NCBI GenBank assembly: GCA_044892525.1
Contig: CM097885.1
Span: forward strand, 240,932,001-240,996,000
Direction: 5' to 3'
Length of the DNA stretch: 64,000 nucleotides
Origin: Schmidtea polychroa
Taxonomy: Eukaryota
Positions 2,931 through 39,268 of the stretch are shown in pieces (within the stretch, counting starts at the first letter, position 1; each line of letters begins with the position of its first letter). The notes below the pieces were generated by a model. That model did no database searches and was not told the DNA's origin. It was given only the letters and a program-made list of their open reading frames with translations. The position numbers were made by a program, and so were the translations under genes.

Positions 2931-3740
2931 AAGTTAAAATAAACATTTTATAAGTCAGTAAAAAATATTTTTTTTTTACCATATTTTCTATATCTATAAT
3001 ATAATAATAATAAATAATGAATTTTGTGAATTTAATATGTAATGTTTTCTTTTTCTTTTTTTCTAAATAAAAAAAAATTTTTATAATTACATGGTGTAAT
3101 ATGAATTACATGGTGTAATATGAACATGGTGTAATATGGTGAAATATGAAGCATTGTTGGTAAAAACTTTGAATCCGTAAATTATTTTTCAGAATTCTTT
3201 GAATATGTGTGTTTTAAATGTTTTTAAATTGAGATTAGAGTTGTTGTTTTCCGAATGATTTGAATGATTATTTTATAGATAATTTTGTTTATAAAATATT
3301 AAAAATGTCAATGGGTTACAGGAAATGAAAATAACACCCAATGGTGTTGTTTCCAGCGTAACCCAGTATGTAATGCTTCCATACCACTCGACACCAGTTG
3401 AATAAACAAAATCGTTAATGTGTCAAATTGGCGAAGTAGATGGATGGGTCACCGCTAAAGCAGGTCACCACTGGAACAAAGACATATACCCCCTCCCCCG
3501 GCCGAAGATTTTTTTAAAAAATATTTTTTGTAGAACAAAGACAATGACTCATCCGATGACTCATCAAAAAACAGGTTACCGCTGGAACAAAGACTTTTTT
3601 TTAAATATTAATATTATTATAATATTATAATATTAATATAAATATTATGACCTGTTTTTGGTCATGAAACAAGTTAGTGTTCCCATCATCCGATTTTATT
3701 AAACGATAGCTCATTTTAAAGCCTAGTGCAAGATCTATTT

Positions 3741-3808
<68 letters not shown>

Positions 3809-4107
3809 TTTATCATTAATATTTGGAAAGATTTTAACGCCCGCGCGGAAGATGTTATTTTCAAAATTATTATTATTATTATTATTATATATAGTCCGAC
3901 TTTATCCGAAAAAATATTTTGTCCCCCTATGGGTATTGCTCACAAAGGTACTACTCAAACTCANNNNNNNNNNNNNNNNNNNNNNNNNNNNNNNNNNNNN
4001 NNNNNNNNNNNNNNNNNNNNNNNNNNNNNNNNNNNNNNNNNNNNNNNNNNNNNNNNNNNNNNNNNNNNNNNNNNNNNNNNNNNNNNNNNNNNNNNNNNNN
4101 NNNNNNG

Positions 4108-4842
4108 ATTAAAGTTTTGGATCCGGATAACTCAAAACTACATAAATTGATCTCACGTATTCCTATGTCACGTCGTACAACTGCGCGTCGAATTGGCCAA
4201 ATTACCGAAAATGTTGAAAATAATTTGATGTGTGATTTAAAAAATTGTACAGCATTCAGTTTAGCTCTCGACGAGTCTACTGACATTCAGTATGTTCCAC
4301 AATTAGCCGTTTTTAAAAAAGCGGTTGGGGAATTGGAGTTATTAGATATGCAAGAGGACCAGGCTTTGCAAATGCACCATAAAGTTACTTCTATAATTGA
4401 ATTTTGGAAACTCGTACCAGAGGCAAAATATCCACACTTAAAACAAGCTGCTTGCCGTCTAATTTCAATTTTTGGTACAACATATTGTTGTGAATCTTTG
4501 TACTCCACAATGAAGTTCGTGAAGTCGAAATATCGTTCACAGTTGACCAATCAGCATCTTACAGAATTGCTGCGAACAGCTTTAACAAAGTATACACCAA
4601 ATTTCAAAGATTTGACCAAAAGTCTTCGTTAATTCAAGAAATTTTATTACTTTTTATTAATGGATTTTTATTATATTTTATGTTTGTTACTTAAATTTTG
4701 AAATAATTGTTTTTAATAGCGTTTAAGTCTTTTTTAATCAAATTAATGAAATAAAAAAAAATATGTAGTTCACTATGGTGGCTCTTTAAAAAATAAATTT
4801 TCGGAAAACGTCTCTCATTGAACTCATGCGTGCCCACCCTTG
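4108..4842 (+). mobile_element. Internally deleted hAT (Buster/Charlie, GTF2IRD2-like) element nested in the left arm of Maverick 1
   Basis: ORF reads IPMSRRTTARRI...FSLALDESTDIQYVPQLAVF, joined directly to the C-terminal dimerisation domain EFWKLVPEAKYPHLKQAACRLISIFGTTYCCESLYSTMKFVKSKYRSQL. Right TIR GTGCCCACCCTTG ends at 4842; the left end lies in the N-run. Confidence 0.9.
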
Positions 4843-5409
4843 ATATATATATATATATATATATACAAATTTATATAATTTTTGGTGCCTGCATTCACAA
4901 AATTAGACAAATAATATATAAAAAAATGAATACAAAGCTAAGATTTATTAACATGTAAATTAATATAAAAAACAATTATCATAGAAATTACACATAAATT
5001 AAAATAAAAATACCATTCTAAGATCATAAATAAAATAAATCTGAAAAACAGCATAAAATTTAACTAGTTAAAATTTTTAACCATTTAAATAAATCAAATT
5101 TTGATTTTGATGTCCACACTCGCATTCGCGGTCCTACTAAAATCAGCGAGTGTGAAATTATTTAAGTTGAATGATTGCTTTATTTTTATAGAATTGATTG
5201 CTTTAAACGATGCCTGTGCAACACAGAACCATTTTTTGAAAATATACAAGATCTGGTGGCCGCATAATAATTATTTTAAATTATTATAAAAATACTGAGA
5301 AATATTAAGTTTTCAAATAATACTTTATTGTTAAGTTTATTCATAAGCTTCATATTTAAATTATGTGAATATAATATCACTTTTTAATGCGAAATTTGCT
5401 TTTCTTTTG

Positions 5410-5740
5410 TTTTGGCAAGTTTAAAATTTGTAAGAGAACATTTGAGCTGGTCTTTGAGATTTTCGTCTTCTAGTGATCCTCGGTATTTTGACTTATTATG
5501 TTTTATTTTTGAAAAGAATATTTCGCACAAATATGCCGTACCAAGAAAATTAATAATTTTAAGTGCATTGAATCTTAATTTTGGAAACTATTTTCTATCA
5601 AAAATTTTTTTATAAAATTCAATTTTATCATGCGTTTGGAAGAGCTGTTCTAACTGGAAATTAACTTGCATGTATATAATCTCGAGTTGGTACTTATCTG
5701 GAACTATAATTGTTTATGAAGTTCCAAGCATTTTCAATCC
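5410..5740 (-). mobile_element. Second hAT C-terminal fragment nested in the left arm of Maverick 1
   Basis: Minus strand: YQLEII...FPKLRFNALKIINFLGTAYLCEIFFSKIKHNKSKYRGSLEDENLKDQLKCSLT, with one stop; hAT dimerisation domain. Confidence 0.8.
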
Positions 5741-5759
5741 CTCAACTTTTTCATCATCA

Positions 5760-5817
<58 letters not shown>

Positions 5818-5910
5818 GTTGTAGCACACACTCATTATACTAATTACCAATAGAAATATTGTATTCATGTTGTATCAAATAAAAACTCATATTTTTACTT
5901 TTATAATCTA

Positions 5911-5957
5911 TCAACCAATCAGAATCATATGATATTTCAGTAGTAGTAATATAAATA
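5911..5957 (+). promoter_or_regulatory. CCAAT box (TCAACCAATCAG) plus TATAAATA upstream of the chimeric ORF; mirror copy at 8827-8838 serves the Bcl-2-like gene
   Basis: The same 12-mer recurs, reversed, at 7209-7220 with TGAGTCA and TATAAAA upstream of ATG 7279. Confidence 0.55.
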
Positions 5958-5985
5958 AAACAGTATATTAAAAATTATTGTAAAA

Positions 5986-6450
5986 ATGTCTCAATTTATT
6001 GAAAATGTTCTAAACGGAATTGTCACCGCGAATATAGTCGACAGCCTCAATTTCCTGGTCAATCGAACCGAACAAATCATTGAACTTGAACATATCGATT
6101 ATCAGCAAATGATGGAGATGGAATGCCTGGAAACCAAGAAGTATTCAATAGAATATTTCAGTGTCTTGGATAATAATAAATTACAATATCGAATCAATAA
6201 TATTAAAATCCAATCAGTTACCGTTACTATGGATATGGGACATAGTATCAATATATATAACATGTCGAGAAAATGTGATTGTATGTTTGAACCGCAATTG
6301 TTTCCGACACTAAGACTATTAAAATATAACCGTATATGTGTCAACGTGTTTGTTAGTGGAAAGGTTGTCATGCTGGGGTTGAGAAATTTGGAGTATAGGG
6401 AATTTGTTAACAATGTTAGGAATAAGATATTTTCATTGGTCGATTTCTAA
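5986..6450 (+). CDS. Chimeric ORF: Bcl-2-like N-terminus (from the TIR) fused to a single TBP-fold repeat, 154 aa
   Basis: C-terminal half NIKIQSVTVTMDMGHSINIYNM...MFEPQLFPTLRLLKYNRICVNVFVSGKVVMLGLRN matches the TBP repeat consensus (FKIQNMVGSCD...YEPELFPGL...LIFVSGKVVLTG). The first ~60 codons are the inverted copy of the 8238-8763 gene start. Confidence 0.8.
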   Translation: MSQFIENVLNGIVTANIVDSLNFLVNRTEQIIELEHIDYQQMMEMECLETKKYSIEYFSVLDNNKLQYRINNIKIQSVTVTMDMGHSINIYNMSRKCDCMFEPQLFPTLRLLKYNRICVNVFVSGKVVMLGLRNLEYREFVNNVRNKIFSLVDF

Positions 6451-6505
6451 TTGGTTAATTTCTAATTGGTTAATGTTTGTTTTAAACAAACTGTTTTTTG
6501 TTTAG

Positions 6506-6930
6506 ATGTCATTTTTCAAAATGTACAAAATTCCAAGCGCCACTCGTTTGATGAAACAAATTGATAATTATGGTAAATTTTAGATTTATTATTTACATTT
6601 TTATAGTCTTTATTTTCAGATAAATATTCAGAAGTCATGTTAAATCGACTCAAGTATTTTTATCCCCAACTAAATGAAATTCTAAATGACCAAGAACCTG
6701 AGATTATTCCAGATCTCGTATTTTATGCAACCCAAATCAGGATATTAGAGGTGTTCCATCAATTCCTGTGGAGCATTAAGATAGATAGACAACAGAAAGA
6801 TATGGAACCGGAATACCAATGCATCATCGGATGCTCTTTCTGTGCCGATCGTTATCGGCGATATGTCGAGTGGGAATTAGTGAAAACTCTCAGAAGGTTT
6901 CACTATTCTCGAGTTGTAGATCTCGGGTGA
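6506..6930 (+). CDS. Spliced orphan ORF in Maverick 1 (exons 6506-6572 and 6620-6930), with a C-x3-C-x2-C motif
   Basis: A 47-nt GT..AG intron (6573-6619) joins MSFFKMYKIPSATRLMKQIDNY-D in frame to the listed 97-aa ORF. Confidence 0.6.
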
Positions 6931-7278
6931 TTGTATTAATAAATGTTTTATTGTGTTTTTATTGTTTTTTCTTTTATATATTTCAAATAATAGTAATATA
7001 AATAATAATAATAATAATAATTTGAGAATAATAATAATAAATAATAGTAATAATAATTTGAGAATAGTAATAATAAATAACATGACCCATTAATAATAAT
7101 AGAAATAGATTGAAAATAGTAATAATAAAACAATAATGATATGACACAGAAAATTAATGCAACATCAATGCAATTATGAATGCAATTTAAACAATGACAT
7201 GCTATAATCTGATTGGTTGATATGCATGAGTCAAAGGTATAAAAACCCTGTAACATTTCATTTTAATCATTATTCGCG

Positions 7279-7792
7279 ATGACCAAGATAATTTCAAGCA
7301 CCGAAAACCCTAAAGAAGAACTTGTACAACCGGATCAAATGTTCCACAGCTACAAAATGTATGTTTTAAAGGAAGAAATCAATATGAAATTGGTTGCCCC
7401 GGTCAAGCTTATTCCAACTCAATTTCATTTCTTATCCGGCACGCTTTCAATGATAGATGTTAAAACTATTGATGATGTTTTTAAACGGATAAATTCTAAT
7501 CTAGCATGTAATCAACATGCATGGTTCAACAACAGATATGCAAAATTTTATGATGCATTTGATGAAATCAGTTTCAAAGAAAATGAAAATTGGTAATATA
7601 ACAATTGCAATCCAGGGATATAAAGTTGATAATAATGATGTGTATTCTCCTATTTGGAAAATGATGTCTATTTTAATGTTATATTTAATGTATTTAATAA
7701 AAGTATTAGGCATATTTGTTTTTCTCTTTATTAACAAAGAAATTGCAACATTAATGAAAATGACATGCAAATTTAACAAAAAAAATCTATAA
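7279..7792 (+). pseudogene. Orphan ORF in Maverick 1 (105 aa to 7596; probable frameshifted continuation with a hydrophobic segment to 7792)
   Basis: ATG follows CCAAT, AP-1 and TATA motifs. An overlapping frame continues KIGNITIAIQGY...MMSILMLYLMYLIKVLGIFVFLFI. No family recognised. Confidence 0.5.
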
Positions 7793-7852
7793 ACAAACTT
7801 ATAATATAGTTTTAAAGTGATAAAAAATGACTGCAGAAAAAGGTTAGCATGA

Positions 7853-8188
7853 TTAATTAATTTCCGAATTATTTATAATTTAGAATTTGTAATCAACTTT
7901 TTGTTGGAAAAATTAGCCGAAATAGCTGGTGTAAAAATTGAGGATATATTATCTGTTGCAAATGCATTAAATATCGGCTGGGTAGTTGAGAGTCAAGATT
8001 CATGATTTGATGATCAGGAAGAATCTGATACTCAAGAAACCGATACCCAAGAAATTGATGAGGAAATCTGTGAACCTATAGATGAACTTATAGATACGGA
8101 AAATATTACGAATGATTGTGTAGATCATGTCGTTGAAAATGCAATGAAATGTGGAGATGATGATTGCGAATGTGTTAATAAATTTTAA
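7853..8188 (+). pseudogene. Acidic orphan reading frame with one internal TGA (8003-8005)
   Basis: Reads NLEFVINFLLEKLAEIAGVKIEDILSVANALNIGWVVESQDS*FDDQEESDTQETDTQEIDEEICEP...CGDDDCECVNKF*. Confidence 0.45.
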
Positions 8189-8237
8189 AATTGAATTGAA
8201 TTATTTGCATTCAAATATACTATTATAAACAATAACA

Positions 8238-8763
8238 TTAATTTTTATTCATATATCTACAAAAAATATACATTATAACAACTCCAGTTGCAAATTTTAT
8301 ATAGTTTGTCATTTTTCTTTTGATTTCATCAGTTTCTTTAGCATTGTGGGCAAGTTTATTTAATACACCCCATCCGCCACTGGCTTCTATCAAGGGGGTA
8401 AACTTGGACTTGATTATCTAGAAATGAATATTATTAAAATATATATAGACTATAAAAGAAATCTTACTTCTAAAGACTACTGATAATAATGTTCTGAGTC
8501 ATGTTGACTATTTGCAAAGATTATTTTCATGTAGGTGAATCCTACAATTATCCTTGTCCATTTCATGTCTTCATCGAAAAGACATTGAAATATTCTATTG
8601 AAGTAATACTTATTGGTTTCCAGGCATTCCATCTCCATCATTTGCTGATAATCGATATGTTCAAGTTCAATGATTTGTTCGGTTCGATTGACCAGGAAAT
8701 TGAGGCTGTCGACTTATTCGCGGTGACAATTCCGTTTAAAACATTTTCAATAAATTGAGACAT
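8238..8763 (-). pseudogene. Bcl-2-family gene carried by Maverick 1 (BH1, BH2, C-terminal membrane anchor; one intron; two lesions)
   Basis: BH1-like FNRIFQCLFDEDMKWTRIIVGFTYMKIIF, BH2-like PLIEASGGWGVL, tail anchor YIKFATGVVIMYIFCRYMNKN*. Phase-0 50-nt intron GTAAGA..TTTCTAG at 8467-8418. Lesions: 1-bp deletion near 8715 (intact in the left-arm copy) and TAG at 8479-8477. Confidence 0.8.
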
Positions 8764-10798
8764 TTTTACAATAATTTTTAATATACTGTTTTATTTATAT
8801 TACTACTACTGAAATATCATATGATTCTGATTGGTTGATAGATTATAAAAGTAAAAATATGAGTTTTGATTTGATACAACATGAATACAATATTTCTATT
8901 GGTAATTAGTATAATGAGTGTGTGCTAAAACTAATAATAATAATAATAATAATATCTTTTAATATATTTTAATATCTTTCCCAATATTAATGATAAAAAT
9001 AATATTTATATATCATTAAATAGATCTTGCACTATGCTTTAAAATGAGCTATCGTTTAATAAAATCGGATGATGGGAACACTAACTTGTTTCATGACCAA
9101 AAACAGGTCACCGCTGGAACAAAGACATTATATTTTTAAAATATTAATATTTAAAAAAAATAATGTCTTTGTTCCAGCGGTAACCTGTTTTTTGATGAGT
9201 CATCGGATGAGTCATCGTCTTTGTTCTACAAAAATTATTTTTTAAAAAAAATTTCGCCCGGGGGAGGGGGTATATGTCTTTATTCCAGCGGTGACCTGTT
9301 TTAGCGGTGACCCATCCATCTACTTGGCGATTATTAGTAAAAAGTGAGCTCACTCTGGTGAACTATAATTGGATAACATTCTTATGGATCCACGGACTAT
9401 TAATGGACGATATTTTTCCGATTTATTTCATGGTCCCTGTTATCGTTTAACGCTCAACGAAAAACATAAGAATTGTTAGAAAATTCGACCATAATTCATT
9501 TAAATTTTATTGTACACAAAAAATGTATTTAAGGCAAATTTATTCGGCCTGCAAACGGGTCACAGGTTGTTCTCCAATTCAGACTAAAACTCTGTTAGTC
9601 ATTATTGACCAAACGTTTTGAATTAATTAGTTAAACAAGCTTAACAATTTCATTAAAGTTCTGATCTATTTTAATTTATGTTTAACTACTATTTTTTAAC
9701 TACTATACTTAAAAGTTTTTAATTTATTATTCTGAAAAACCAAATTAATTTTGATCAGACTTATAAGCCTAAAACCCTATTTATGACATCGCTGACTAAA
9801 TTGCCCCATGAATTGGCTGCGCTTTTATACTCATTCTATAATTAAATTCTTTCCCAATCAAATTGATTTTGGGATTTTGAGACTCTCTCTCTCCAGGCTT
9901 TACATTCATCACCTAATTTGTTTTGAATTTCGAATATTTAGGTTTATGAACAATTCATTTATTTTTATGTTAATTTGCCCGAATTTAATTTACCGGTGGC
10001 TCTTTGTTCTCTCGGGTTTTGCTCATACCCCAATTTGGCCTAACCTAATTAAAAATTTTGTTGAATAATCGAATTTTTTCACACTGCTCTGGTTTCCCAT
10101 TAACTCGGGTTTTTAATTAGATAATTAATTTTTAATTAATTTTAGTTTTTTGTAAATATTTCCTTCTGGGGACTCCCCATTCATTTTATTTCATTATATA
10201 TGAATTCGTCTCATTGGTTTGTCATCCATCCATATCAGTTTCCTCCTGAAAATATTCATTTTAAATATTTTTGTACTTTTAATTATTATTGTGAATTTGA
10301 TGTTATTTATATTTTATTTTTGTGCCTATTTCATTAAACTCCAACAATATTATTTTTATGTTAATGATTTTTTGTGTCTGTTTTCTCAACTTTTAACTGT
10401 TTATTGGGTGTTTTCATATTGTTTGAGTTTAACTCGACTTAATGCTATGTTTTTCGTGTTTTATTACCCCCCTGCTTCTTCAAAATCCTCACAATTAGAG
10501 CTTTGTTTTATCGAATGTCAGTTTTGGCCCAATAATTTTATTAATTGATTGCAAAAATTATAAATGAAATGCTTATTAATAAAATATCATTTTAAAAGGT
10601 TTTAAAATAAATATTTTAAAAAATAGATTAATTTCAAAAATAATAATTAATTATTTAAATTGAATTGAAAAATGTTTTAAAATAATAAAATTTTTTAATC
10701 TGTTTATTAAATTTATAATATTTATAGATTTTTCTATCCTATATATAAGGATGACAGGAAAACTTTATTGTCTATTTAATAATAATAAATGTAACTTA

Positions 10799-12157
10799 GG
10801 TATAAGTATACAATAGGGGGGCCACTTTTTTATAAATAAATATATATAGATATAAATATTTAAATATATTAAAGTAATTAAAACATAGTATAGTTCAAGT
10901 ATATATATTAAAAAGACTATCAAGTTACGTTTATATTTACTTGGTATTACACACCACCAAAATCATATTTTTCACGTATTTGATTGATTAATACATCAAA
11001 CGCACGCTCATTTCGACAAAATCTTCTTCTCCACATGAATTCATCTAAGTACGAAGGAATGAAGCTACATCTAGTCCCAAACATATACTTAAATTTCCTT
11101 TTACATAAGGCCCACGAACCTTCTATTCCATTGGTGTTAACGCCGGTTAGGGGATCAATAAAGTGTTCCGAGTGATTCACCCACTGGTGTACATACGGTC
11201 CCAGTCTAGCTAAAGGTGTAGGTGCATTTGGGTTTCGTCGGGGACCACCAGTATAGGTCGAGAATTCATCGGTCCAAATAGTCGTTCCCGGAAGTACAAC
11301 ACGCGAAAAAATCGGAAAAATTTCTTTTTGGGTCCTATTATCAACGAATTCAAAATGTACATTCTTCGTAGTATAGTCTAGAATTCCGAAAACCCACCCA
11401 CTGCGGGCATTCCCTCTCGGTTCGCCACGATTATGCAGCAAATTCATTAACTTGGACTCATCCGCTTGCACTATATGATCTACTCCACCAAACAATAAAG
11501 GTTGAGATACTAACTTCCAACTGGCAATATCTCTGAAATACTGGTACCATTGAATTATAGTTTTTTTGGAAATATCGGTGAAAAGCTGAACTTGTTTAAT
11601 GGAGCATTCCGCGCCCCAAAAATACATCAATAGAAAAAGCTCACGAATATGCAGTTTTGAATTACAAAAAAAACTCCCGTTTGTAATTGTTTGCTTGATT
11701 CGATGAGGATTTACGCGTGCCCGACTCCGGCAAACAAATATATATTCATTTACGACTTTGGAATCTTTAACTAGTTCCATAATACGCCCGCATCTCGCGC
11801 AGGTTGGATCGGCTCGTAACAAACCTACACTTTGGCAATGTCTTATCAAAGACAGTGTGTCTCTTGAAAGTTCATATATTTGCTTTAAATTCATGGCCTC
11901 ATATTTATATATATATATACGTTAAAGATTAATTAAAACATCTTTTAAATAAGGATATNNNNNNNNNNNNNNNNNNNNNNNNNNNNNNNNNNNNNNNNNN
12001 NNNNNNNNNNNNNNNNNNNNNNNNNNNNNNNNNNNNNNNNNNNNNNNNNNNNNNNNNNNNNNNNNNNNNNNNNNNNNNNNNNNNNNNNNNNNNNNNNNNN
12101 NNNNNNNNNNNNNNNNNNNNNNNNNNNNNNNNGGCCCCCCTATTGTATACTTATACC
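10799..12157 (-). mobile_element. Merlin (IS1595/ISXO2-like) DNA transposon
   Basis: TIR GGTATAAGTATACAATAGGGGGGCC at both ends; exact 8-bp TSD GTAACTTA at 10791-10798 and 12158-12165. Confidence 0.95.
10947..11894 (-). CDS. Merlin/ISXO2-like DDE transposase, 315 aa, uninterrupted
   Basis: N-terminal CxxCG zinc ribbon; VQADESK, WVFG, IWTDEFSTY and HQWVNHSEHFIDPLTGVNTNGIEGSW...K motifs. Confidence 0.93.
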   Translation of the reverse strand: MNLKQIYELSRDTLSLIRHCQSVGLLRADPTCARCGRIMELVKDSKVVNEYIFVCRSRARVNPHRIKQTITNGSFFCNSKLHIRELFLLMYFWGAECSIKQVQLFTDISKKTIIQWYQYFRDIASWKLVSQPLLFGGVDHIVQADESKLMNLLHNRGEPRGNARSGWVFGILDYTTKNVHFEFVDNRTQKEIFPIFSRVVLPGTTIWTDEFSTYTGGPRRNPNAPTPLARLGPYVHQWVNHSEHFIDPLTGVNTNGIEGSWALCKRKFKYMFGTRCSFIPSYLDEFMWRRRFCRNERAFDVLINQIREKYDFGGV

Positions 12158-13960: not shown

Positions 13961-15414
13961 GTCCCGAAAAAGTTTTAAAGGAGACTCGACTGGTCTCAAC
14001 AGGTTTCTTAACTACATTTCAATAATATAGAAAAATATAATATGACAACACCGAACTATACATATGTAATACTACNNNNNNNNNNNNNNNNNNNNNNNNN
14101 NNNNNNNNNNNNNNNNNNNNNNNNNNNNNNNNNNNNNNNNNNNNNNNNNNNNNNNNNNNNNNNNNNNNNNNNNNNNNNNNNNNNNNNNNNNNNNNNNNNN
14201 NNNNNNNNNNNNNNNNNNNNNNNNNNNNNNNNNNNNNNNNNNNNNNNNNNNNNNNNNNNNNNNNNNNNNNNNNNNNNNNNNNNNNNNNNTTCATTTTACG
14301 ATATAGAATAATTATAATCTAAATTATAATCTAAATAATAAATCATTTTTAATTTGTAATAAATATATATATATATATTTTCAAAAATTGAAATTTAAAA
14401 ATTATTTAATTTAATAATCTAATACGTTTAAAAAGAACAATACAATATTATTTTTTATATTTCATCTAATCCATAGTTAGGTGTAAATTTTATAAAAATA
14501 AATTTTACTAAATTTATAAAATCTCCTAAATCTATTTTTAGTAACTAAATAGACGTCAGCTTAATTTTGTAGAAGACTTCGATTTTCTAATTCTAATTTT
14601 CGGGCTACGATAAAACTAAGGCAACTGATTGTCAAGTTGCTATTGGTCAGTGTGTTGAATCATTGTCCAGGAATAATGCCACATGTATACTGATCACTTT
14701 TTTTAAATTTATTCAATTGAGCTTAGCTAGACTTTATTAATAAGATTTTATTCAAAAATTCTATAATTTAATGATTTGATTTTCAGTTTTTACACATATT
14801 ATTTACGAATTTATTGGTAAAAAGTTTTGATTTTCATTAAATAATATTTCTGATACATACAGGCATCAGACATCAACACCCATCTGTGTGTATGAGAAGC
14901 AGACGATTTCTATTGGCTACTTAAAATTCATAAGAGAAAATTCATAGTTCTGAATGTGAAAAAAATATCCAAGATAAAATTGAGTGTTTCAAAATGAAGT
15001 AATGAAGATTTCATCAAATTTCTGCTTGCAAATAAATTTTACTCATTGTTTATTTGTAAGCAAAAATCAATTACCATTCGTGTGGAATTAATACCATCTG
15101 TTCAATTCGTTTCGTGAAAATTGTTGGAAATGCACTGAAGAATTTATTGGAAAAAAACTCGAAAGAATTACAATTTCTTCCTAACTTGTAGGATAGACGG
15201 AAATTTTCTTTGCTAAAATGCAAATTTCTCTTGAATTTTAGTTAATAATGACGTGGTATTTTTTATATTAGTAATTATTAATATTTTAGCGTGTGCATAC
15301 AAACTGAATTTTGTGTATGAAATGAAATGATTGATAAATGTTTATCTAACGATGCTTATATATTGTTACACCAATGGAATATAAATCATTTTGCATCTAA
15401 GAATTCTGAAGAAA

Positions 15415-16213
15415 ATGTCTAATTGCAAATCTCAACTGACAGATTTTGATTTCATTCGAATTTCAACTCCAGATTTAAACGGTTGTCACTTGTCAAAGCT
15501 TATCTCATCGCAACTTGCTCAACGTATTAAAAACAACGAAGTTGATTTATATGGTGGTGCTATAGCGCTAGGTCCAAGAACCCAATATGTGGCCATTGAT
15601 GAATTTAAAGAAAATAAATCCCGAAATGCTTTCTTTTTTCCCGACATGGACACTTTAAAACCAATCAAATGGGCAGACGATTTGGAGAGAGATTTCCATG
15701 TCGGTGATGTCATAGCAGACATGAAATGGGATGAAACGAGTCCAGTTGAATTTCATCCTCGAATTGTTGCAATAAAACAAATCCAGCGACTGGAAAAAAT
15801 GGATTTGGAATTATTTTCCGCTTTTGAACCAGAATTTAGGGCTTTTAAATTAGATTCATTTGAACCGTTTACTACTGGATTGGACATGAATAAAACGACA
15901 ATGCTAGCAAAATATGAAAAGTTTTTCATGGATTCTGTCACAAAACTTGCTGTAGCCGGTATAGACATACAGGATTGTTGCATTGAACATGGTGAAGGTC
16001 AGTTAGAAATGCCTTTATTACCCTCTTTTGGAATTTCTGCTGCTGATAAAGCTTTTCGATTCAAGCAAGGTATAAAGGAATTGGGTAAACATCACCAAAT
16101 GACTATAAGCTTCATGACAAAACCGTTTTTATCGGAGTCGAGCAGTGGCAATCATTTCAATCATTCATTATGGTATAAATCAACAAAGAGGAATGCTATG
16201 TTTGACGTAAAAG
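15415..16213 (+). CDS. Type-I glutamine synthetase / lengsin-like gene, exon 1
   Basis: FIRISTPDLNG...K, AFEPEF, IEHGEGQLE, FRFKQGIKE, FMTKPF..SSGNHFNHSLW. ATG at 15415; donor AAG|GTATGC, phase 1. Confidence 0.9.
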
Positions 16214-16305
16214 GTATGCAATATCTTTGATGAATATTGTATTTTAGTATCATAATAATATTTAAATATTGAGAACAAGTATAATTTCCTACAAATTAAA
16301 TCATA

Positions 16306-17474: not shown

Positions 17475-18811
17475 TATAATATTATTTTGTATACTACAAC
17501 ACAACTTTACCGGGCTCATAGAAATGGATAAAGACTAAAATTAACTTCTAGTTCATGGTTTACGACTGTTGTCATTTTGTTTTATTTTATTATTCAAATA
17601 TGGTTTATAGTATGAATTTTTAAATTTTAATCAAGAATTTCAATAACTGCCAAGGGGTATTTACATATGAAAAGGTTTTGACAGTTTCGTGCTGTAACTT
17701 TTGGGGGCCCTGTGTAGATACTAAAAACGTTTCTTTTAATTTTATCGCATTCATTTTTATTGATTTTAATTAAAAGAAATAATACAAAGAAATTATAAAG
17801 CAATTTTTCAAGTTTTTGAAAAAAATAACAGAATTATTAGGTATACTTGTTTCAAATTAAATCGTAGCCAATTAGATTTGTTTGAAAGTTAAATGAATTT
17901 TGAATTTCCATCTTTGGTTTTTCTTTCAATTCGACAATTTTTTTTGCTATTGGAGAAGTTTTCATAATGTATTTAATATTTGGGGCCCAGTGCGATTGGA
18001 CTTGCAATAGCGTACGGCGCTGGATTTTGCACGAGTTTTGTTCATTACGAATTACAAGAAATATCTAAACGAAAATATATTTCTATTAATGATGCGTTAT
18101 GNNNNNNNNNNNNNNNNNNNNNNNNNNNNNNNNNNNNNNNNNNNNNNNNNNNNNNNNNNNNNNNNNNNNNNNNNNNNNNNNNNNNNNNNNNNNNNNNNNN
18201 NNNNNNNNNNNNNNNNNNNNNNNNNNNNNNNNNNNAGTAGATGGATTGGGCACCGCGAAACAGGTCACCGCCAGCACAAAGACATTTTTTACCCCACCCC
18301 CCCCCCCCGGCCGGAAAAATTTTTAAAATTTTTTTTTTCAACTTGAGAACAAAGACATATGACTCATCCGATGACTCATCAAGCATTCAAGGTAGACTTG
18401 AGAACAAAGACATATGACTTATCAATGATATATAATTATTATTATTTTTAAAAATATTATTATTTCTAATGTCTTTGTGTTCGCGGTGACCTACTATTTG
18501 GCCTGCTAAAAGTTATTGTTCCCATCAACTTATTTCATCGATCGATAGCGTATTTTGAAGCTTGGTGCAAGACCTTTCGAATGAGCTATTGCTGTNNNNN
18601 NNNNNNNNNNNNNNNNNNNNNNNNNNNNNNNNNNNNNNNNNNNNNNNNNNNNNNNNNNNNNNNNNNNNNNNNNNNNNNNNNNNNNNNNNNNNNNNNNNNN
18701 NNNNNNNNNNNNNNNNNNNNNNNNNNNNNNNNNNNNNNNNNNNNNNNNNNNNNNNNNNNNNNNNNNNNNNNNNNNNNNNNNNNNNNNNNNNNNNNNNNNN
18801 NNNNNNNNNNN

Positions 18812-21288
18812 CTCCGAGTTTATCCGACAAAATATTTTATCCCCCTATGGGTAATGCTCAAAAGGGTACTGCCCCGAGTTTATCCGACAAAATATTTTCT
18901 CCCCCTATGGGTACGGCTCACAAGATTTTGTGTAAATCGTTGATTATATTATTTTTTTTGTTTTAATTATCAATTACATAATAATTTCGTTTTGTTTAAA
19001 TCGTTGATTATATTATTTTTTTGTTTTAATTATCGATTATGTTTGTTTAAATTATCGAATATGTAATAATTTAATTTTGTTTAAATCGTTGATTATATTA
19101 TTTTTTTTTGTTTTGATTATCGATTATGTTTGTTTAAATTATCGAATATGTAATAATTTAATTTTGTTTAAATCGTTGATTATATGATTTAATTTTGTTT
19201 AAATCGTTGATTATATTTTTTTTTGTTTTAATTATCAATTACACAATAATTTCGTTTTGTTTAAATCGTTGATTATATTATTTTTTTTTGTTTTGATTAT
19301 CGATTATGTTTGTTTAAATTATCGATTATGTAATAATTTAATTTTGTTTAAATCGTTGATTATATTATTTAATTTTGTTTAAATCGTTGATTATATTATT
19401 TTTTTTTGTTTTAATTATCAATTACACAATAATTTCGTTTTGTTTAAATCGTTGATTATATTATTTTTTTTTGTTTTAATTATCGATTATGTTTGTTTAA
19501 ATTATCGATTATGTAATTATTTAATTTATCATTATTATTGGGAAAGATATTAACGNNNNNNNNNNNNNNNNNNNNNNNNNNNNNNNNNNNNNNNNNNNNN
19601 NNNNNNNNNNNNNNNNNNNNNNNNNNNNNNNNNNNNNNNNNNNNNNNNNNNNNNNNNNNNNNNNNNNNNNNNNNNNNNNNNNNNNNNNNNNNNNNNNNNN
19701 NNNNNNNNNNNNNNNNNNNNNNNNNNNNNNNNNNNNNNNNNNNNNNNNNNNNNNNNNNNNNNNNNNNNNNNNNNNNNNNNNNNNNNNNNNNNNNNNNNNN
19801 NNNNNNNNNNNNNNNNNNNNNNNNNNNNNCTCCGAGTTTATCCGACAAAATATTTTATCCCCCTATGGGTAATGCTCAAAAGGGTACTGCCCCGAGTTTA
19901 TCCGACAAAATATTTTCTCCCCCTATGGGTACGGCTCACAAGATTTTGTTTAAATCGTTGATTATATTATTTTTTTTTTTTAATTATCAATTACATAATA
20001 ATTTCGTTTTGTTTAAATCGTTGATTATATTATTTTTTTGTTTTAATTATCGATTATGTTTGTTTAAATTATCGAATATGTAATAATTTAATTTTGTTTA
20101 AATCGTTGATTATATTATTTAATTTTGTTTAAATCGTTGATTATATTATTTTTTTTTGTTTTAATTATCAATTACACAATAATTTCGTTTTGTTTAAATC
20201 GTTGATTATATTATTTTTTTTGTTTTGATTATCGATTATGTTTGTTTAAATTATCGATTATGTAATAATTTAATTTTGTTTAAATCGTTGATTATATTAT
20301 TTAATTTTGTTTAAATCGTTGATTATATTATTTTTTTTTGTTTTAATTATCGATTATGTAATTATTTAATTTATCATTATTATTGGGAAAGATATTAACG
20401 NNNNNNNNNNNNNNNNNNNNNNNNNNNNNNNNNNNNNNNNNNNNNNNNNNNNNNNNNNNNNNNNNNNNNNNNNNNNNNNNNNNNNNNNNNNNNNNNNNNN
20501 NNNNNNNNNNNNNNNNNNNNNNNNNNNNNNNNNNNNNNNNNNNNNNNNNNNNNNNNNNNNNNNNNNNNNNNNNNNNNNNNNNNNNNNNNNNNNNNNNNNN
20601 NNNNNNNNNNNNNNNNNNNNNNNNNNNNNNNNNNNNNNNNNNNNNNNNNNNNNNNNNNNNNNNNNNNNNNNNNNNNNNNNNNNNNNNNNNNNATACTCCG
20701 AGTTTTTCCGACAAAATATTTTATCCCCCTATGGGTAATGCTCAATAGGGTACTGCCCCGAGTTTATCCGACAAAATATTTTCTCCCCCTATGGGTACGG
20801 CTCACAAGATTTTGTTTAAATCGTTGATTATATTATTTTTTTTGTTTTAATTATCAATTACATAATAATTTCGTTTTGTTTAAACCGTTGATTATATTAT
20901 TTTTTTGTTTTAATTATCGATTATGTTTGTTTAAATTATCGAATATGTAATAATTTAATTTTGTTTAAATCGTTGATTATATTATTTAATTTTGTTTAAA
21001 TCGTTGATTATATTATTTTTTTTTGTTTTAATTATCAATTACACAATAATTTCGTTTTGTTTAAATCGTTGATTATATTATTTTTTTGTTTTGATTATCG
21101 ATTATGTTTGTTTAAATTATCGATTATGTAATAATTTAATTTTGTTTAAATCGTTGATTATATTATTTAATTTTGTTTAAATCGTTGATTATATTATTTT
21201 TTTTTGTTTTAATTATCGATTATGTTTGTTTAAATTATCGATTATGTAATTATTTAATTTATCATTATTATTGGGAAAGATATTAACG
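18812..21288 (+). repeat. Three ~1-kb higher-order units (two palindrome cassettes plus AT-rich minisatellite AAATCGTTGATTATATTATT...), separated by N-runs
   Basis: Near-identical blocks at 18812-19555, 19830-20400 and 20694-21288, each ending GGGAAAGATATTAACG; a shorter inverted version lies at ~27470-27910. Confidence 0.9.
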
Positions 21289-21960
21289 NNNNNNNNNNNN
21301 NNNNNNNNNNNNNNNNNNNNNNNNNNNNNNNNNNNNNNNNNNNNNNNNNNNNNNNNNNNNNNNNNNNNNNNNNNNNNNNNNNNNNNNNNNNNNNNNNNNN
21401 NNNNNNNNNNNNNNNNNNNNNNNNNNNNNNNNNNNNNNNNNNNNNNNNNNNNNNNNNNNNNNNNNNNNNNNNNNNNNNNNNNNNNNNNNNNNNNNNNNAG
21501 TTTATCCGACAAAATATTTTGTCCCCCTATGGGTATTGCTCATATGGGTAATGGTCAAAAGTGTACTACTCACATTCAACATGTCTCAAAGGGCATAATA
21601 TAATTATTATTAAATTCTGACCAACTTAAATCAATGAAGGGGTAGAACAAAAATATATTACGTTGCGGTATTTTAAATTTAAAAATATTTTTAAAACTTA
21701 TTTTGACACTAAAGTTTACTTATTTAACAAAGACATAATTATTGCACATGCCTTGCATAAATATTATTATTTTTTAAATTTTCAATATTTCTTTTAAAGT
21801 CTTAACACGCGCGGAAGTTATTATTATTATTATTATTATTAGTGAAAAATCTAAAATATTTTCTACACACACACACAACCCATTAAACTTTATTATGATT
21901 ATTATCAATATCAGTCAAAAACCTAAAATATTTTTTACACACATATACAACTCATTAAAC

Positions 21961-22029
<69 letters not shown>

Positions 22030-22060
22030 TTCAAAGAATTATTTTCAAAATTTTTATCAA

Positions 22061-22111
<51 letters not shown>

Positions 22112-22138
22112 CTCCTAGTCTATGTTAACAAAAGGTAT

Positions 22139-22290
22139 TTAACTTGCTCAATTTGTAAAGAAAATCAAGTTTCGGTTTTGTATTTACCGTGCGGTCACGT
22201 AATTGTTTGTTCTAAGTGTCACGAGAAGAATGTTCACAATTGCCAAGCTTGTTCAACACAGATTAATGAATATCATACTATATATATATG
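22139..22290 (+). pseudogene. IAP-type C3HC4 RING finger fragment inside Maverick 2
   Basis: LTCSICKENQVSVLYLPCGHVIVCSKCHEKNVHNCQACSTQINEYHTIY = C-x2-C-x11-C-x-H-x3-C-x2-C-x7-C-x2-C. No start codon; begins just after the arm junction. Confidence 0.8.
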
Positions 22291-22421
22291 TAAGTTCTCA
22301 ATATTATATCAAATGAATTATGGTAATGGATTATGACCGGAAAAATTAACAAATAATATGAAATCACCTTGGTAATTAAATATATGGGGCGCAACTACCA
22401 AATGGTGATGAAGGAATACCC

Positions 22422-22553
22422 ATGAGTTCATCAAAATGGGAAAAAGATCTTCGCAAGAACCATGAAGATGCTCGAAAAGTAGAAAAAACCCTAACAAATA
22501 TTTTAAAGTTGAAATTATGTGTTACAGTAGTATTGGTTATTATTGTTTCGTAA
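22422..22553 (+). CDS. Short ORF with a C-terminal hydrophobic tail (43 aa), possibly a gene remnant
   Basis: MSSSKWEKDLRKNHEDARKVEKTLTNILKLKLCVTVVLVIIVS*. Confidence 0.3.
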   Translation: MSSSKWEKDLRKNHEDARKVEKTLTNILKLKLCVTVVLVIIVS

Positions 22554-25500
22554 ATAAATGTTTTAATTTGTTTTTATAAATTTATTGTTTTATTGTAATA
22601 CTTTTTGATTAAAACATATTCATTTTGTTTTAATATTTGTATTAATTTTTTAAATAGTGTTATTTATATATGGAAATTTACAATTATATATTATATACAA
22701 TTATATTTACAATTATATTTACAATTATTATAAATCATAATGATGGTTTTCTTCTGTTCATTGATTCTCCTCTGATTTTACTGCCATAATCATTTTCGAC
22801 AAAATGCAAATATAATATTTCTAGTGTCTTTGTTAATCATGCCCATTTATTGCAAAGTATTTGTTAATTATGCACTTGTATTGCAAATTTATTAGTCATA
22901 CAATTATATTATTTTTTCATGTCCTGACATAATATTATTATTTTTAATTTTATTATTATTTTGTTTAACAATACCATATAGCAAATTTTTAGGCAATTTA
23001 GTGAAATGTTATTTTAAATATAGGAATTTCTTAAGTAAAATAGATAAATTAACCTATTTAGTTAGAAATCCCTGGTTTTTGGCTGAACCATTTAATTAAA
23101 ATATTCTAGGATTCATAACAAATATTTTGATATAGTTGATACATATACCAATTATTTCAATTATTTAACTAGAAACATAACTGAATTCTTAGGTAATATA
23201 GTATTTTTTAGTGAATTTATAAATATTATCTGACATTTTGATGTATTTGACAACAAATTAATCAATAAAGACCATAGCATATTGTAAGTTTTTATATATA
23301 GTCTGAATTTATCCGACAATATATTTTGTCCCCCTATGTGTATTTGTCGTAAGGGTACTGCTTACATTCAACATGTCGCAAGGGTATATTAATTAAAGCA
23401 TATGTATATTAATTATTCTTAGGCAATTTAGTGAGAAATGGATGATCATAGATATCAGAAATTCGTGAATATTTTGAATGTAACTTACCGAATTCTCATT
23501 TCGAGCGACTAATTTATTGGTTAAATTTTTCATGTTTAGTCATTTAAAATAATATTTAGCAAAAGGTAAGATATGAATATTTAGTATTTCATAGGTAATT
23601 TATTCATCTAATGTTCATTACAATAGTTAATATAACTTCGTGAGAAATGTATGGTTATTAATATATTCATGGATATTTTTGGTAGAAAGTCTTTATCATT
23701 TGGAGTAAATTTCTGTCTATGTTCGAGACAAAAAAGAGACATAATAGAAATATGATCATTTGGTTATCATTTAACCAATTAAGGTGCTTATTAGTTAGAA
23801 ATATAGGGTTACAATTCTTTTCTAATTTAATGAGATGATCATAGGGTGTAATATATCTTTTTTGAGAAATACATGGTTAACATTTTTAAATAGGGATTTT
23901 GAGTAACCAAAACAGGGATATTTTGTGCGAATAATTTAAGAATATTGGTTAATTTTCTCTTTTTTAGTCATTTAAAATAATATTTAGCAAAGGTAATTTA
24001 GCAAAATATCATTGAAGGATTTATCCATCCGATAATAATATTCCTTCAATAGATTTTACCCTTTATTCAACCGATTTAATTTCTAGAAATCTAATTAAAA
24101 TCATAAAATTCCTTCAATAAAGATAAATTTTCTTTAGCGGTTGTCGATTTCCAACTTTTAAGTCAATATTTCTCAAGTTTTGTCACTGATATCCCCACAA
24201 TGACTAAAATAACTTTTTAAATAAAATAATTTAAAGCAATAACCTTTGATATCAATCCCAATTAATTCTAAAGATTTCAAATATTTCATTGTGAAAACCA
24301 AGTCAATTGATCATTAACCCTAAACGACTTAATAAAACAGTGGATAATTAATAAAAAACTTGTTCTAAAACATAAATTACTGTGCAATAACATTCATCAC
24401 AGCCTAATAAACGATATAATTTCACAGGAGCTATTATTAATTCATAGCTGACTATTTCCCTTTAAAATTTTACCAATAAGAACATTGTCGATTTAAATAG
24501 AGATTTCAAACATTTCCACCTTAACCAATCCCTCACCAAATATTTCTACCATTTTAAACACCCCCCCCCCTTAAAAATCATATATTACCATCTTAACCAA
24601 CCGACTTTAATATATCAGCCCTTTAATATATCAATTCTCTTAAATCCATAGAAAATTCATCAAAATATGAATATTATTTAATTGTTTCAGACATCCCTCC
24701 ATTGAAATAATTTAGTATCTAAATTCATGTAGTAAAAGCCCACTAAAAGATCAAATTTACTAAAATCAATATTTTCTACAAATATTTCGCCACATTTACC
24801 ATCAAATACCTAACTAGAGATGAAATATATTGTTTGATCATAATTCTTCATCGATTCAGCTAATTATATAGCAATTATAACGTGATATATCTTTCAAAAT
24901 CACAAATTTCAGTATATTTTACAATAATTTTTACAAAAATTAAATAATGATCACTTGATTATTGTAAAAACTCTAATTATTAACCTAACTGTCATTAAAA
25001 ATAATTTTTATTTAAAATTAAATTTAAAAACAAGTCAATAAAATATAGCAAATTATCAAGAAATTAATTAAATTTGTCTTAGAATTAACACTAAAACGTT
25101 AAATTTCAAAATATTCTTTCAATTATTCACAAAAAGGTTAGTAATAATGTTAGTAAAATCCCGCTAACTCTAAAAATTACCAATGAATTTAATGCTAAAT
25201 AATAACCAAAAATTTGCCTAAATAAAATCATTAAAACATCCCAGTACCATTACGACCAGTACCCTTACGAGCAGTACCAATTGTGAACAGTACCCATAGA
25301 GGGAGAAAATATCTTGTCGGATAAACTCAGAGTATATATAATAAAACGAATTAACAATAACTCCATCAAATTGAATCAGTCAAATTAACACAAATTTTGA
25401 TAAAAAAATCATATTCTAAAATGGTAAGAAGCGTAAAGTCGAAAGATAATTTTAATAACACCGAGATAAATTAACAATATCATTCTCAGGTGGTAAGGAT

Positions 25501-26045
25501 CTTTAAATGCATTTAAAAAAATGCATTCAAAATGCATTTATCATAATTAAATAAATCAATCAAATATTCAATAGAGGAATGTTTGAAAATTTTTAAAATA
25601 TTTATGATTTCCTTATCAGTGTAAGTATCGTGATTATTTATAAAAGCTTCAACTGTGCTGTTAAAAAATTTCAATGAACGCTTATCTTCGGAATAGGTTG
25701 GACTTAATTTTTCCATATTTCTAGTAGGACTTATATAAAAAATATTGACAAAATAATAAAGTTACTAAATGTGTTTTGTGATTTACACAATCATATTCAT
25801 ACTTGTAGAAATCATCAGTAATAAATAAATTTCTTAATAACTAAATTACTTTTGTTTTTACATTTATAAAAATTGAGATAGCCAATCAAATTAGTGTTTT
25901 ATAAAATGTAGAAATTGTAACCATGGTTGAACAATAATAATAATAAGCACGACTAGTACCCTTGCAACCTGTTGAGTGTGAGCAGTACCCATAGGGGGGA
26001 CAAAATATTTTGTCGGATAGACTAGGAGTATATATAATAATAATA

Positions 26046-26076
<31 letters not shown>

Positions 26077-26371
26077 AAATAAGAAATTTGAAGATAATTT
26101 TGAAAATGATAATAATAATATTTTATAAATAAAATAAGAATTTTGAAGAAAATAATCATGAAAATTATGAAAATGTTAAAAATAATGAAAATATAGAAAA
26201 TGATGAAAATGTTGAAAATGATGAAAACGTTAAAAATTATGGAAATGATCCTGAAAATAATCATCAAATATTGAAAATCGTAAAATGGTGCAGAAATTAA
26301 GTTTTATGAATATTTAAGTAAATAATGATAATGAAACTTCTACAATAAAATAATAATTAGAATTTTGCAAA

Positions 26372-26402
<31 letters not shown>

Positions 26403-26652
26403 AATATTGATAAAAATTTTGAAAATAATTCTTAGAAAATAATACTTTGAAAAATATTTGATGAAAAGTTCCTGAAATAATCATGAAAATGTTGAAAATC
26501 GTGAAAATATTGAAAATGTAGAAAATTATTAAAATATTCATGCAAATGATGAAAATGTTGAAAATCATGAAATTGACGTAAAAATTATGTTTTATAAATA
26601 TTTAAGTAAATAATAATAATGAAACTTCTAAAATAATAGTTAGAATTTTGCA

Positions 26653-26697
<45 letters not shown>

Positions 26698-26834
26698 GTT
26701 TAATGAGTTGTATATGTGTGTAAAAAATATTTTAGGTTTTTGACTGATATTGATAATAATCATAATATAGATAATAATAATAATAAAGTTTAATGGGTTG
26801 TGTGTGTGTGTAGAAAATATTTTAGATTTTTCAC

Positions 26835-26874
<40 letters not shown>

Positions 26875-27920
26875 TTCCGCGCGTGTTAAGACTTTAAAAG
26901 AAATATTGAAAATTTAAAAAATAATAATATTTATGCAAGGCATGTGCAATAATTATGTCTTTGTTAAATAAGTAAACTTTAGTGTCAAAATAAGTTTTTA
27001 AAATATTTTTAAATTTAAAATACCGCAACGTAATATATTTTTGTTCTACCCCTTCATTGATTTAAGTTGGTCAGAATTTAATAATAATTATATTATGCCC
27101 TTTGAGACATGTTGAATGTGAGTAGTACACTTTTGACAATTACCCATATGAGCAATACCCATAGGGGGACAAAATATTTTGTCGGATAAACTNNNNNNNN
27201 NNNNNNNNNNNNNNNNNNNNNNNNNNNNNNNNNNNNNNNNNNNNNNNNNNNNNNNNNNNNNNNNNNNNNNNNNNNNNNNNNNNNNNNNNNNNNNNNNNNN
27301 NNNNNNNNNNNNNNNNNNNNNNNNNNNNNNNNNNNNNNNNNNNNNNNNNNNNNNNNNNNNNNNNNNNNNNNNNNNNNNNNNNNNNNNNNNNNNNNNNNNN
27401 NNNNNNNNNNNNNNNNNNNNNNNNNNNNNNNNNTTGAAAATAATAATAATAATTTTGAAAATATTCCGCGCGGGCGTTAATATCTTTCCCAATAATAATG
27501 ATAAATTAAATAATTACATAATCGATAATTTAAACAAACGTGATCGATAATTAAAACAAAAAAAAATAATATAATCAACGATTTAAACAAAACGAAATTA
27601 TTGTGTAATTGATAATTAAAACAAAAAAAATAATATAATCAACGATTTAAACAAAATCTAGTGAGCTGTACCCATAAGGGGAGAAAATATTTTGTCGGAT
27701 AAACTCGGGGCAGTACCGTTTTGAGCATTACCCATAGGGGGATAAAATATTTAAAATAAAATATAATATAATCAACGATTTAAACAAAATCTAGTGAGCT
27801 GTACCCATAGGGGGAGAAAATATTTTGTCGGATAAACTCGGGGCAGTACCCTTTTGAGCATTACCCATAGGGGGATAAAATATTTTGTCGGATAAACTCG
27901 GAGTATATAGATTAATACTC

Positions 27921-27992
<72 letters not shown>

Positions 27993-28980
27993 TCTTGGGA
28001 AAATGTTAATAACTTTGCCAATATTAAAGATGGTGATGACAACAATAGCGCATTCGAAAGGTCTTGCACCAAGCTTCAAAATACGCTATCGATCGATGAA
28101 ATAAGTTGATGGGAACGATAACTTTTGGCAGGCCAAATAGTAGGTCACCGCGAGCACAAAGACATTAGAAATAATAATATTTTTAAAAATAATAATAATT
28201 ATATATCATTGATGAGTCATATGTCTTTGTTCTCAAGTCTACCTTGAATGCTTGATGAGTCATATGTCTTTGTTCTCAAGTCTACCTTGAATTCTTGATG
28301 AGTCATCGGATAAGTCATATGTCTTTGTTCTCAAGTTGAAAAAAAAAATTTTTTAATTTTTCCGGCCGGGGGGGGGGGGGTGGGGTAAAAAATGTCTTTG
28401 TGCTGGCGGTGACCTGTTTTCGCGGTGCCCAATCCATCTACTGAAATTACATTTTTAATATTCAAAATTATATTTAATTTTCAAATTATTATATAATCAT
28501 GGATTTAGATTACATATAAGAAACTAAATCAAATAGTCGGGAAATCGAAGAAATCGTGACAGGTTATTTTTTGAAAAATCTTCCGAATGTGGCTTGTTTT
28601 GCTTTTATATTCTATTACTTAACAAACTCGTAGTAGGTAGATTCTGTCTCACAAGTGCTAGTCCTAAGGGTTATGGCGCCCGATGGCTTTATTGGTACTA
28701 TATATATATACATTCATTAGAAACTATAAAACAATAAATAAAGAATATACTTCAGTGCTTTTAATTAATATTATTTCTTTTCAATTGATATTGTATTTAT
28801 TAAAAAACATCGATATATTTACTGATTCATAGTCAAGATTTTTAATAAATACAATGAATAATGTTAAACTAAGTATTTCTTTACTTAAATAATTTTTAAT
28901 AATTTCTTACAATTTTTAAATGTAGCAGTCTCAGAGGTGGTTTATTTTATTTAAAATTCAGGAAATAATATAAGTATTCA

Positions 28981-38800: not shown

Positions 38801-39268
38801 AAGGGTTCTGAACCTTTTCTGAGAATAAGGAAAAATAAGAACAAATCAGAACATAATTAATTAATATTATTTTATTTTTTATTATTACAGCCAGCCATTT
38901 CAAAAATCAATAATTCGTGTTAAATAAATTAAAAATAGTCTAAAGAAATTATGATAAATTTAAATGCAATATACCGGCTCATGTCAAACAACGAGAAATT
39001 GTTTTGAAAATTAGAAAATAAGTAAAATAGTTACAAAAAATTTGTTATTTGCGAAATAAAATTATTTTATATATCTTATTTGGAACCCATATTATAATAT
39101 ATTTAATGAATAATAAACAAATATTTTAATTACAATGAAAAAAATTCATCAAAAATTTGTTCTTGCCCCCAGAATTAAATAAAAGTTGAATTTTATAGAA
39201 ATTTATTTATCTTATAATCTTAAATATTAATTATAAATAATTTTTTAATTTAATATTAAATTTAATAG

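Follow-up and report, generated by a model that had tools for sequence, protein, structure and literature searches.

Does the window, a 64,000-nucleotide stretch of Schmidtea polychroa DNA, carry a Bcl-2 gene as cargo of a mobile element, and where did such a gene come from and what might it do there? The preliminary description had read, in the letters 8763 to 8238 (-), a Bcl-2-family gene of about 160 amino acids, split by a 50-nt intron and broken by a 1-bp deletion and a stop codon, inside a Maverick-like element. The letters of the window bear out this structure, a two-exon gene with a 50-nt GT-AG intron (Table 1). The frame opened by the ATG is shifted near 8714–8715 and closes after 41 residues, and the second frame runs into a stop at 8479–8477. 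The segment 8480–8713 holds the BH1-like sequence LFDEDMKWTR; alone it scores 20.6 bits against PF00452, under the cut-off of 31.4 bits, and exon 2 scanned alone with Pfam gave no match. The other proposed features are found in exon 2, namely a BH2 of the W-x-x-x-x-GGW type, whose first Trp is Leu in the window subfamily and Trp in subfamilies II and III, a C-terminal hydrophobic tail (about 8303–8259; best 15-residue Kyte-Doolittle mean, 1.74) and a basic end. Open copies elsewhere in the genome encode 158 residues. A Maverick/Polinton family has a spliced Bcl-2-family gene among its accessory genes, and the window contains a dead copy of it; the assignment of this copy to this protein family and this setting is almost certain on the evidence below.

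Table 1. Coordinates of the Bcl-2-like gene and of the surrounding element in the window
Feature	Position	Strand	Basis
Left target-site duplication, 6 bp TGGCGA	3429..3434	.	identical 6 bp at 9325-9330
Left terminal inverted repeat, start AGTAGATGG	3435..3823	(+)	85.8% identical to right repeat over 395 columns
hAT transposase C-terminal fragment, inserted	4108..4632	(+)	PF05699 E 1.8e-9; unmatched in sister elements
Inverted second copy of Bcl-2 upstream region and first ~60 codons of exon 1	5760..6167	(+)	inverted arms, alignment, blastn to sister elements
Open chimeric frame, 154 aa: Bcl-2 N-terminus and 3' half of TBP-like gene	5986..6450	(+)	PF00352 E 1e-10, residues 72-135
Remaining Maverick accessory arm, three small frames	6451..8200	(+)	colinear with sister elements at 78-89%
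Bcl-2-like gene exon 2	8238..8417	(-)	59 codons + TAA (8240-8238); BH2 LIEASGGW, linker, hydrophobic tail, basic end
Intron, 50-nt GT-AG, phase 0, inside predicted helix 6	8418..8467	(-)	donor GTAAGA 8467, acceptor TTCTAG ends 8418
Bcl-2-like gene exon 1	8468..8763	(-)	296 nt; ATG 8763-8761; PF00452 E 6.7e-4 on 8480-8713
Right terminal inverted repeat, end CCATCTACT	8933..9324	(-)	inverted-repeat comparison
Right target-site duplication TGGCGA	9325..9330	.	matches 3429-3434

The gene is read inwards, away from the right terminal repeat of a Maverick/Polinton of 5.9 kb (3435–9324) that has lost internal parts and is flanked by a 6-bp target duplication. Compared with sister elements, all that remains of it is the accessory arm together with the hAT fragment and an inverted partial copy of the start of this arm; no core Maverick gene was matched in it by Pfam or by comparison to sister elements, PolB and the rve integrase being deleted, and Pfam gave nothing below E 0.05 on the three pieces of the accessory arm. 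The chimeric frame was considered as a gene of the family and rejected: its junction 17-mer occurs twice in the genome, the second time in unrelated DNA. The sequence indicates that this frame arose by inversion or rearrangement in the window copy itself. An accessory frame at about 6506–6930 (+) also has an apparent short GT-AG intron near 6570–6620. Elsewhere in the window, at about 18258–28443, lies another element whose terminal repeats are related and which contains nested inverted duplications and a C3HC4 RING frame (22109–22333; PF13920, E 9.5e-11); this frame presumably resembles IAP-type RINGs. An open 316-aa frame for an IS1595/ISXO2-like (Merlin-type) transposase is found at 10950–11897 (-) (PF12762, E 1.3e-13). 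Exons of a glutamine-synthetase-like host gene lie at 15385–16230 (PF00120, E 6.6e-24) and 39241–39795 (assigned by eye), both on the forward strand with mobile DNA between them.

The Maverick-like setting proposed for the gene is borne out by sister elements, one of which, 15.4 kb long, has the same ends as the window element and a 6-bp duplication. Thirty copies of the gene were fetched from the 40 scored among 1201 candidates of a DNA search, and they are those closest to the window copy rather than a random sample; 29 of them have the adjoining arm of the element, and 23 the terminal repeat, at most 1.5 kb away. Among the larger contexts of this family (subfamily I), the packaging ATPase was present in all seven, and the integrase and both capsid-like frames in five. 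The sister elements encode PolB (DNA_pol_B_2, PF03175, E 4.4e-11), an integrase (rve, PF00665, E 8.3e-6) with a chromodomain, a packaging ATPase (Pox_A32, PF04665, E 6.4e-6) and an adenovirus-type protease (Peptidase_C5, PF00770, E 5.2e-5). Pfam was uninformative for the capsid-like frames; their Atlas feature score to clusters was 0.98 with a recognition value below the reliable range, and one of the clusters matched has PF21738 (DJR-like) in 15% of its members. Together these genes make up the Maverick/adintovirus set, as described by Starrett et al. (2021; PMC8502044) and by Barreat and Katzourakis (2021; PMC8097293). The family also has a stand-alone TBP-like gene of about 150 aa (L046:3632–4093 (-); PF00352, E 1.4e-15), which is 56–93% identical across subfamilies. 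Other elements are nested beside some family-I copies (L044–L045, L049–L050), with RING and AT-hook frames and a second Maverick-like type having a different ATPase.

A 20-mer from BH1 has 292 exact matches in the genome and its reversed control none. The parser read 26 of the 30 fetched loci, and 17 of these have both exons open with GT-AG ends, so that the intact copies in other elements sought since the preliminary description do exist. A Pfam Bcl-2 search of the genome, in which the best 150 of 909 candidates were scored, yielded three further Maverick subfamilies (II, III and IV), each found among Maverick genes in both of two contexts. Subfamilies II and III have an intron of 45–51 nt at the same site as the window family, and IV has none. 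The Bcl protein of the window subfamily is 74–80% identical to those of II and III. Two elements of subfamily IV are 99% identical over 15.9 kb, which indicates recent spread only. The number of BH1 matches against none in the control, the common intron site in the sisters and the GT..AG joint in RNA-like runs described below together argue that the gene is not a chance reading. Seven near-identical Bcl-2 frames with canonical NWGR, continuing past GGW, were also seen on C4 at about 89.9–90.8 Mb (L051–L057), either as an array or as retro-copies. A word-based protein search with family-I exon 1 returned only two proteins, both of them unspliced exon-1 read-outs, and no relatives were found in two scans of viral contigs or in one scan of metagenome contigs with P0004 as the query.

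Membership in the Bcl-2 family, as first proposed, is borne out by several comparisons. Subfamilies II, III and IV exceed the PF00452 cut-off of 31.4 bits (34.4, 34.6 and 32.7 bits, respectively), whereas exon 1 of the window copy and of family I, scanned by itself, stays under it (20.6–20.7 bits). A profile built from six sequences, representing subfamilies I–IV and the host gene described below, matched 138 PDB sequences with Bcl-xL as the best (E 4e-9). The fold was examined by Foldseek on a model of the intronless subfamily IV protein (pLDDT 84.8), which has the Bcl-2 helical bundle round a central hydrophobic helix 5 and gave TM 0.62–0.71 to Bcl-xL/Bcl-2, with 47 matches at E<=0.001. A subfamily III model, made with the intron kept in frame and X at the stop, reached TM of about 0.3–0.5 with no E under 0.001, probably because residues from the retained intron distort it; all PDB matches listed for it are Bcl-2-family chains. 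BH1 reads KWTR in subfamilies I–III, CWSK in IV and RWSR in the host gene, and the glycine of NWGR is missing in all of them. The BH3 core L-x-x-x-G-D was not found, the aligned position reading LNFLVNRTE. WTR had been taken as divergence of the viral-mimic kind, a view that does not hold: the closest host gene already has WSR and the intronless sister family WSK, so the loss of the glycine is common to element and host rather than viral-mimic drift. A change of this glycine makes a working BH3 groove unlikely, or alters its selectivity, according to PMC8998228, and to judge from the BH1 sequence, groove binding by the element protein probably differs from that of Bcl-xL.

The proposed intron is indeed spliced. 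For copy L007, a 52-nt GT..AG joint at the predicted site was seen in runs X1 and X2 and was absent in X3 and X5, i.e., contigs of both RNA-like runs, which belong to a single study, show splicing and those of two other runs do not; the intron itself is covered in X1 as well. The nature of the runs was judged from the host gene, whose 2972-nt intron is missing from X1, X2 and X7 and evenly covered in X3, X5 lying outside this control. X1 and X2 thus behave as RNA and X3 as DNA, and it is from this control that X1, X2 and X7 are taken as RNA. An intronless family-I copy as the source of the joint was considered and rejected, since exact matching of a junction pattern with 0–6 bases between the exons gave no match in the assembly. 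Hundreds of copies of the gene lie beside the terminal repeat of the element, and transcription and splicing occur in at least some of them.

Purifying selection acts on the gene between subfamilies: dN/dS is 0.12–0.22 in all six between-subfamily pairs, at dS of 0.46–1.29. Inside subfamilies dN/dS is 0.5–0.8, as expected for decaying copies. This pattern fits a gene that is kept by selection on replicating elements and decays once inserted.

The host source can be named. An expressed host gene (L062/L095) with two coding exons scores 192–238 against the element genes, whereas seven other cellular Bcl-2-like frames reach at most 87. It scores 46.2 bits against PF00452 and was seen once among the 150 scored Pfam matches (of 909). 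Its 2972-nt intron, spliced in all three RNA-like runs, follows GGW, a position described as a conserved cellular boundary (PMC8998228). No Maverick genes were seen within 15 kb around it. The Maverick Bcl genes span both host exons without the intron after GGW, and those of subfamilies I–III carry a different intron. Alignment of the element tail with host exon 2 needs no gaps, with 6–11 of 42 positions identical and none of 2000 shuffles as good in all four I–III copies; this does not hold for subfamily IV. A short helix 5–6 loop and a BH1 of the form W[ST][RK] lacking the glycine are common to element and host gene. The spanning of both host exons, the missing host intron and the presence of another intron point to capture via mRNA followed by intron gain, and capture through mRNA from this host lineage is very probable. 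A processed copy of the host gene would have entered an element, thereby losing the ancestral intron after GGW, and a new short intron in helix 6 would have been gained in the ancestor of subfamilies I–III.

Subfamily IV may have a separate origin. Its Bcl protein is 44% identical to that of the host gene and 25% to that of subfamily I, although the other genes of IV and I are alike (ATPase and capsid 78–82%, TBP-like 58–60% identical), which hints in the sequences at a second capture. The trees neither show nor reject two captures, support for a single Maverick clade being 34/0. They comprised database proteins of 120–260 aa up to P0060, two short host frames being left out. The pairing of element and host genes had an SH-aLRT of 86 in a quick tree and was not recovered firmly in a careful one; a wider group of the element genes, the host gene and four unnamed proteins is supported at 92/98. 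These Bcl-2-like proteins in the clade of the element genes are the P0004 cluster, P0006, P0013 and P0023. Genes of the P0004 cluster are complete calls on contigs of up to 13.7 kb, which are possibly elements of other hosts.

Overall, the locus is best explained as host-mRNA-derived Bcl-2 cargo used to keep the host cell from dying, a reading that we favour with some reserve. Transcription would start just inside the terminal repeat and be followed by splicing; the 158-aa protein would adopt the Bcl-2 fold, anchored by its tail in the mitochondrial or ER membrane, and might restrain host permeabilisation of the Bak/Bax type during replication of the element. A precedent for pro-survival cargo is given by the Bcl2 and IAP homologues of adintoviruses (PMC8502044) and by the IAP region of planarian Burro1, which protects stem cells as related second-hand in PMC13465017. 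Planarian Polintons are described as repressed by PIWI and de-silenced on differentiation (PMC8532177).

A pro-survival action of the element protein is, on balance, the likelier role. The protein might instead do a non-apoptotic job of its host parent (e.g., in the ER, calcium handling or autophagy), or serve as a decoy for the host paralogue, rather than block Bak/Bax directly. We consider this possible but unlikely: the missing BH1 glycine in both element and host gene, a loss tied to alternative function in PMC8998228, and the lack of an L-x-x-x-G-D core would suit it, whereas the nearest solved folds are all pro-survival Bcl-xL/Bcl-2, though these dominate the PDB, and anti-death cargo recurs among the mobile elements of this genome. 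It is quite improbable that the protein promotes death or permeabilises membranes, for particle release or for culling of cells that lose or silence the element. A Bcl-2 fold with a membrane tail is also what Bak/Bok-type effectors have, and adintoviruses carry other membrane-active accessory genes (PMC8502044), but the Gly-Asp of the BH3 core is missing, hundreds of copies are tolerated with some of them transcribed, and the host parent, with two exons and its sole coding intron after GGW, has a pro-survival-like layout, Bax, Bak and Bok having 4–6 exons (PMC8998228). The direction of transfer might also be reversed, the host gene being a domesticated Maverick gene. Both have the same odd BH1 and short loop, and the trees give no direction; the ancestral, spliced GGW intron of the host gene, its higher score on the family profile, its single occurrence among the scored Pfam matches and the absence of Maverick genes in the 15 kb around it make this very improbable. 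That the gene is a neutral passenger, i.e., host sequence amplified with the element without any function, is hardly credible, since the broken, truncated or altered state of the window copy and of 9 of the 26 parsed copies and the dN/dS inside subfamilies are outweighed by the low dN/dS across subfamilies at the dS given above, which largely refutes it, by splice sites and an intron position kept in three subfamilies, and by a Bcl identity between I and II of about 81% beside 83–87% for capsid and ATPase.

The preferred reading, host-derived cargo that prolongs the life of the host cell, can be extended to a wider scenario, in which related Mavericks twice took up one host paralogue whose BH1 is non-canonical, the old capture gaining an intron and the younger one staying intronless, a third Bcl-2 capture occurred in Burro-type retroelements, and the protein of the spliced Maverick gene does inhibit death and affects stem-cell survival like the Burro1 IAP region; as a whole this is speculative and rather doubtful. 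Purifying selection on a host-control gene adds to the evidence that these Mavericks lived as viruses managing the host cell. The capture itself is traceable, with a host gene, a lost host intron and a newly gained one, and it concerns a class of elements whose vertebrate members are described as having no introns (PMC8097293). With a BH1 that lacks the glycine, the element protein offers a natural way to learn what such a Bcl-2 does, and the planarian host makes the function directly testable by RNAi.

The preliminary description knew of no account of Bcl-2 as Maverick cargo. Starrett et al. (2021; PMC8502044) had already stated that homologues of Bcl2 and IAP are found in adintoviruses (animal Polintons/Mavericks), and anti-apoptotic genes of adintoviruses are mentioned in 10.1101/2024.03.25.586562. 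The adintovirus Bcl2 homologue is likewise an accessory gene beside pPolB, rve integrase, packaging ATPase, adenain-type protease and capsid-like genes. It is treated there in one sentence and three map labels (Supplementary Fig. S2, in which no flatworm host is named), and splicing is unmentioned in the main text, whereas the window family has a spliced gene, measured selection and a nameable host source. No description of Bcl-2 in planarian Mavericks was found in the literature outside subscription papers, and the supplement of PMC8502044 possibly holds a flatworm entry. Vertebrate Mavericks likewise have terminal inverted repeats, a 6-bp target duplication, AGT-type ends and the core gene set (Barreat and Katzourakis, 2021; PMC8097293); the genes of their intact elements are described there as having no introns, and "Bcl" is absent from the main text, in contrast to the spliced gene of the window family.

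The Burro giant LTR retroelements of planarians (PMC6431247; PMC13465017) are likewise mobile, probably in the same animal group, and have BCL2-like and IAP-like domains. Their Bcl-2 is a domain of a retroelement polyprotein, whereas the Maverick version is a free spliced gene, and the protective function is reported in PMC13465017 for the BIR/RING region, not for Bcl-2. Pair scores of only 60–77 against the Maverick genes point to a separate capture by Burro. In the present genome, frames as long as about 3000–3090 aa (e.g., L099) contain dozens of PF00452 matches, consistent with Burro-type retroelements. With cellular Bcl-2-family proteins the element protein has in common the eight-helix fold, BH1, BH2 with GGW and the C-terminal hydrophobic tail; it differs in an identity of only about 20%, the lack of the BH1 glycine and of the BH3 Gly-Asp, a helix 5–6 loop about five residues shorter and the missing ancestral intron. 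The viral Bcl-2 mimics of herpes-, adeno-, asfar- and iridoviruses are also short, tail-anchored and captured from hosts. The best BFVD match is an iridovirus BCL2-like protein (E 0.022), but these mimics are not close (8–16% identity, no E under 0.001), and the element gene is traced to the host itself. Collectively, this kind of cargo is already in print, and what is added here is a host source that can be traced and an intron that was apparently gained.
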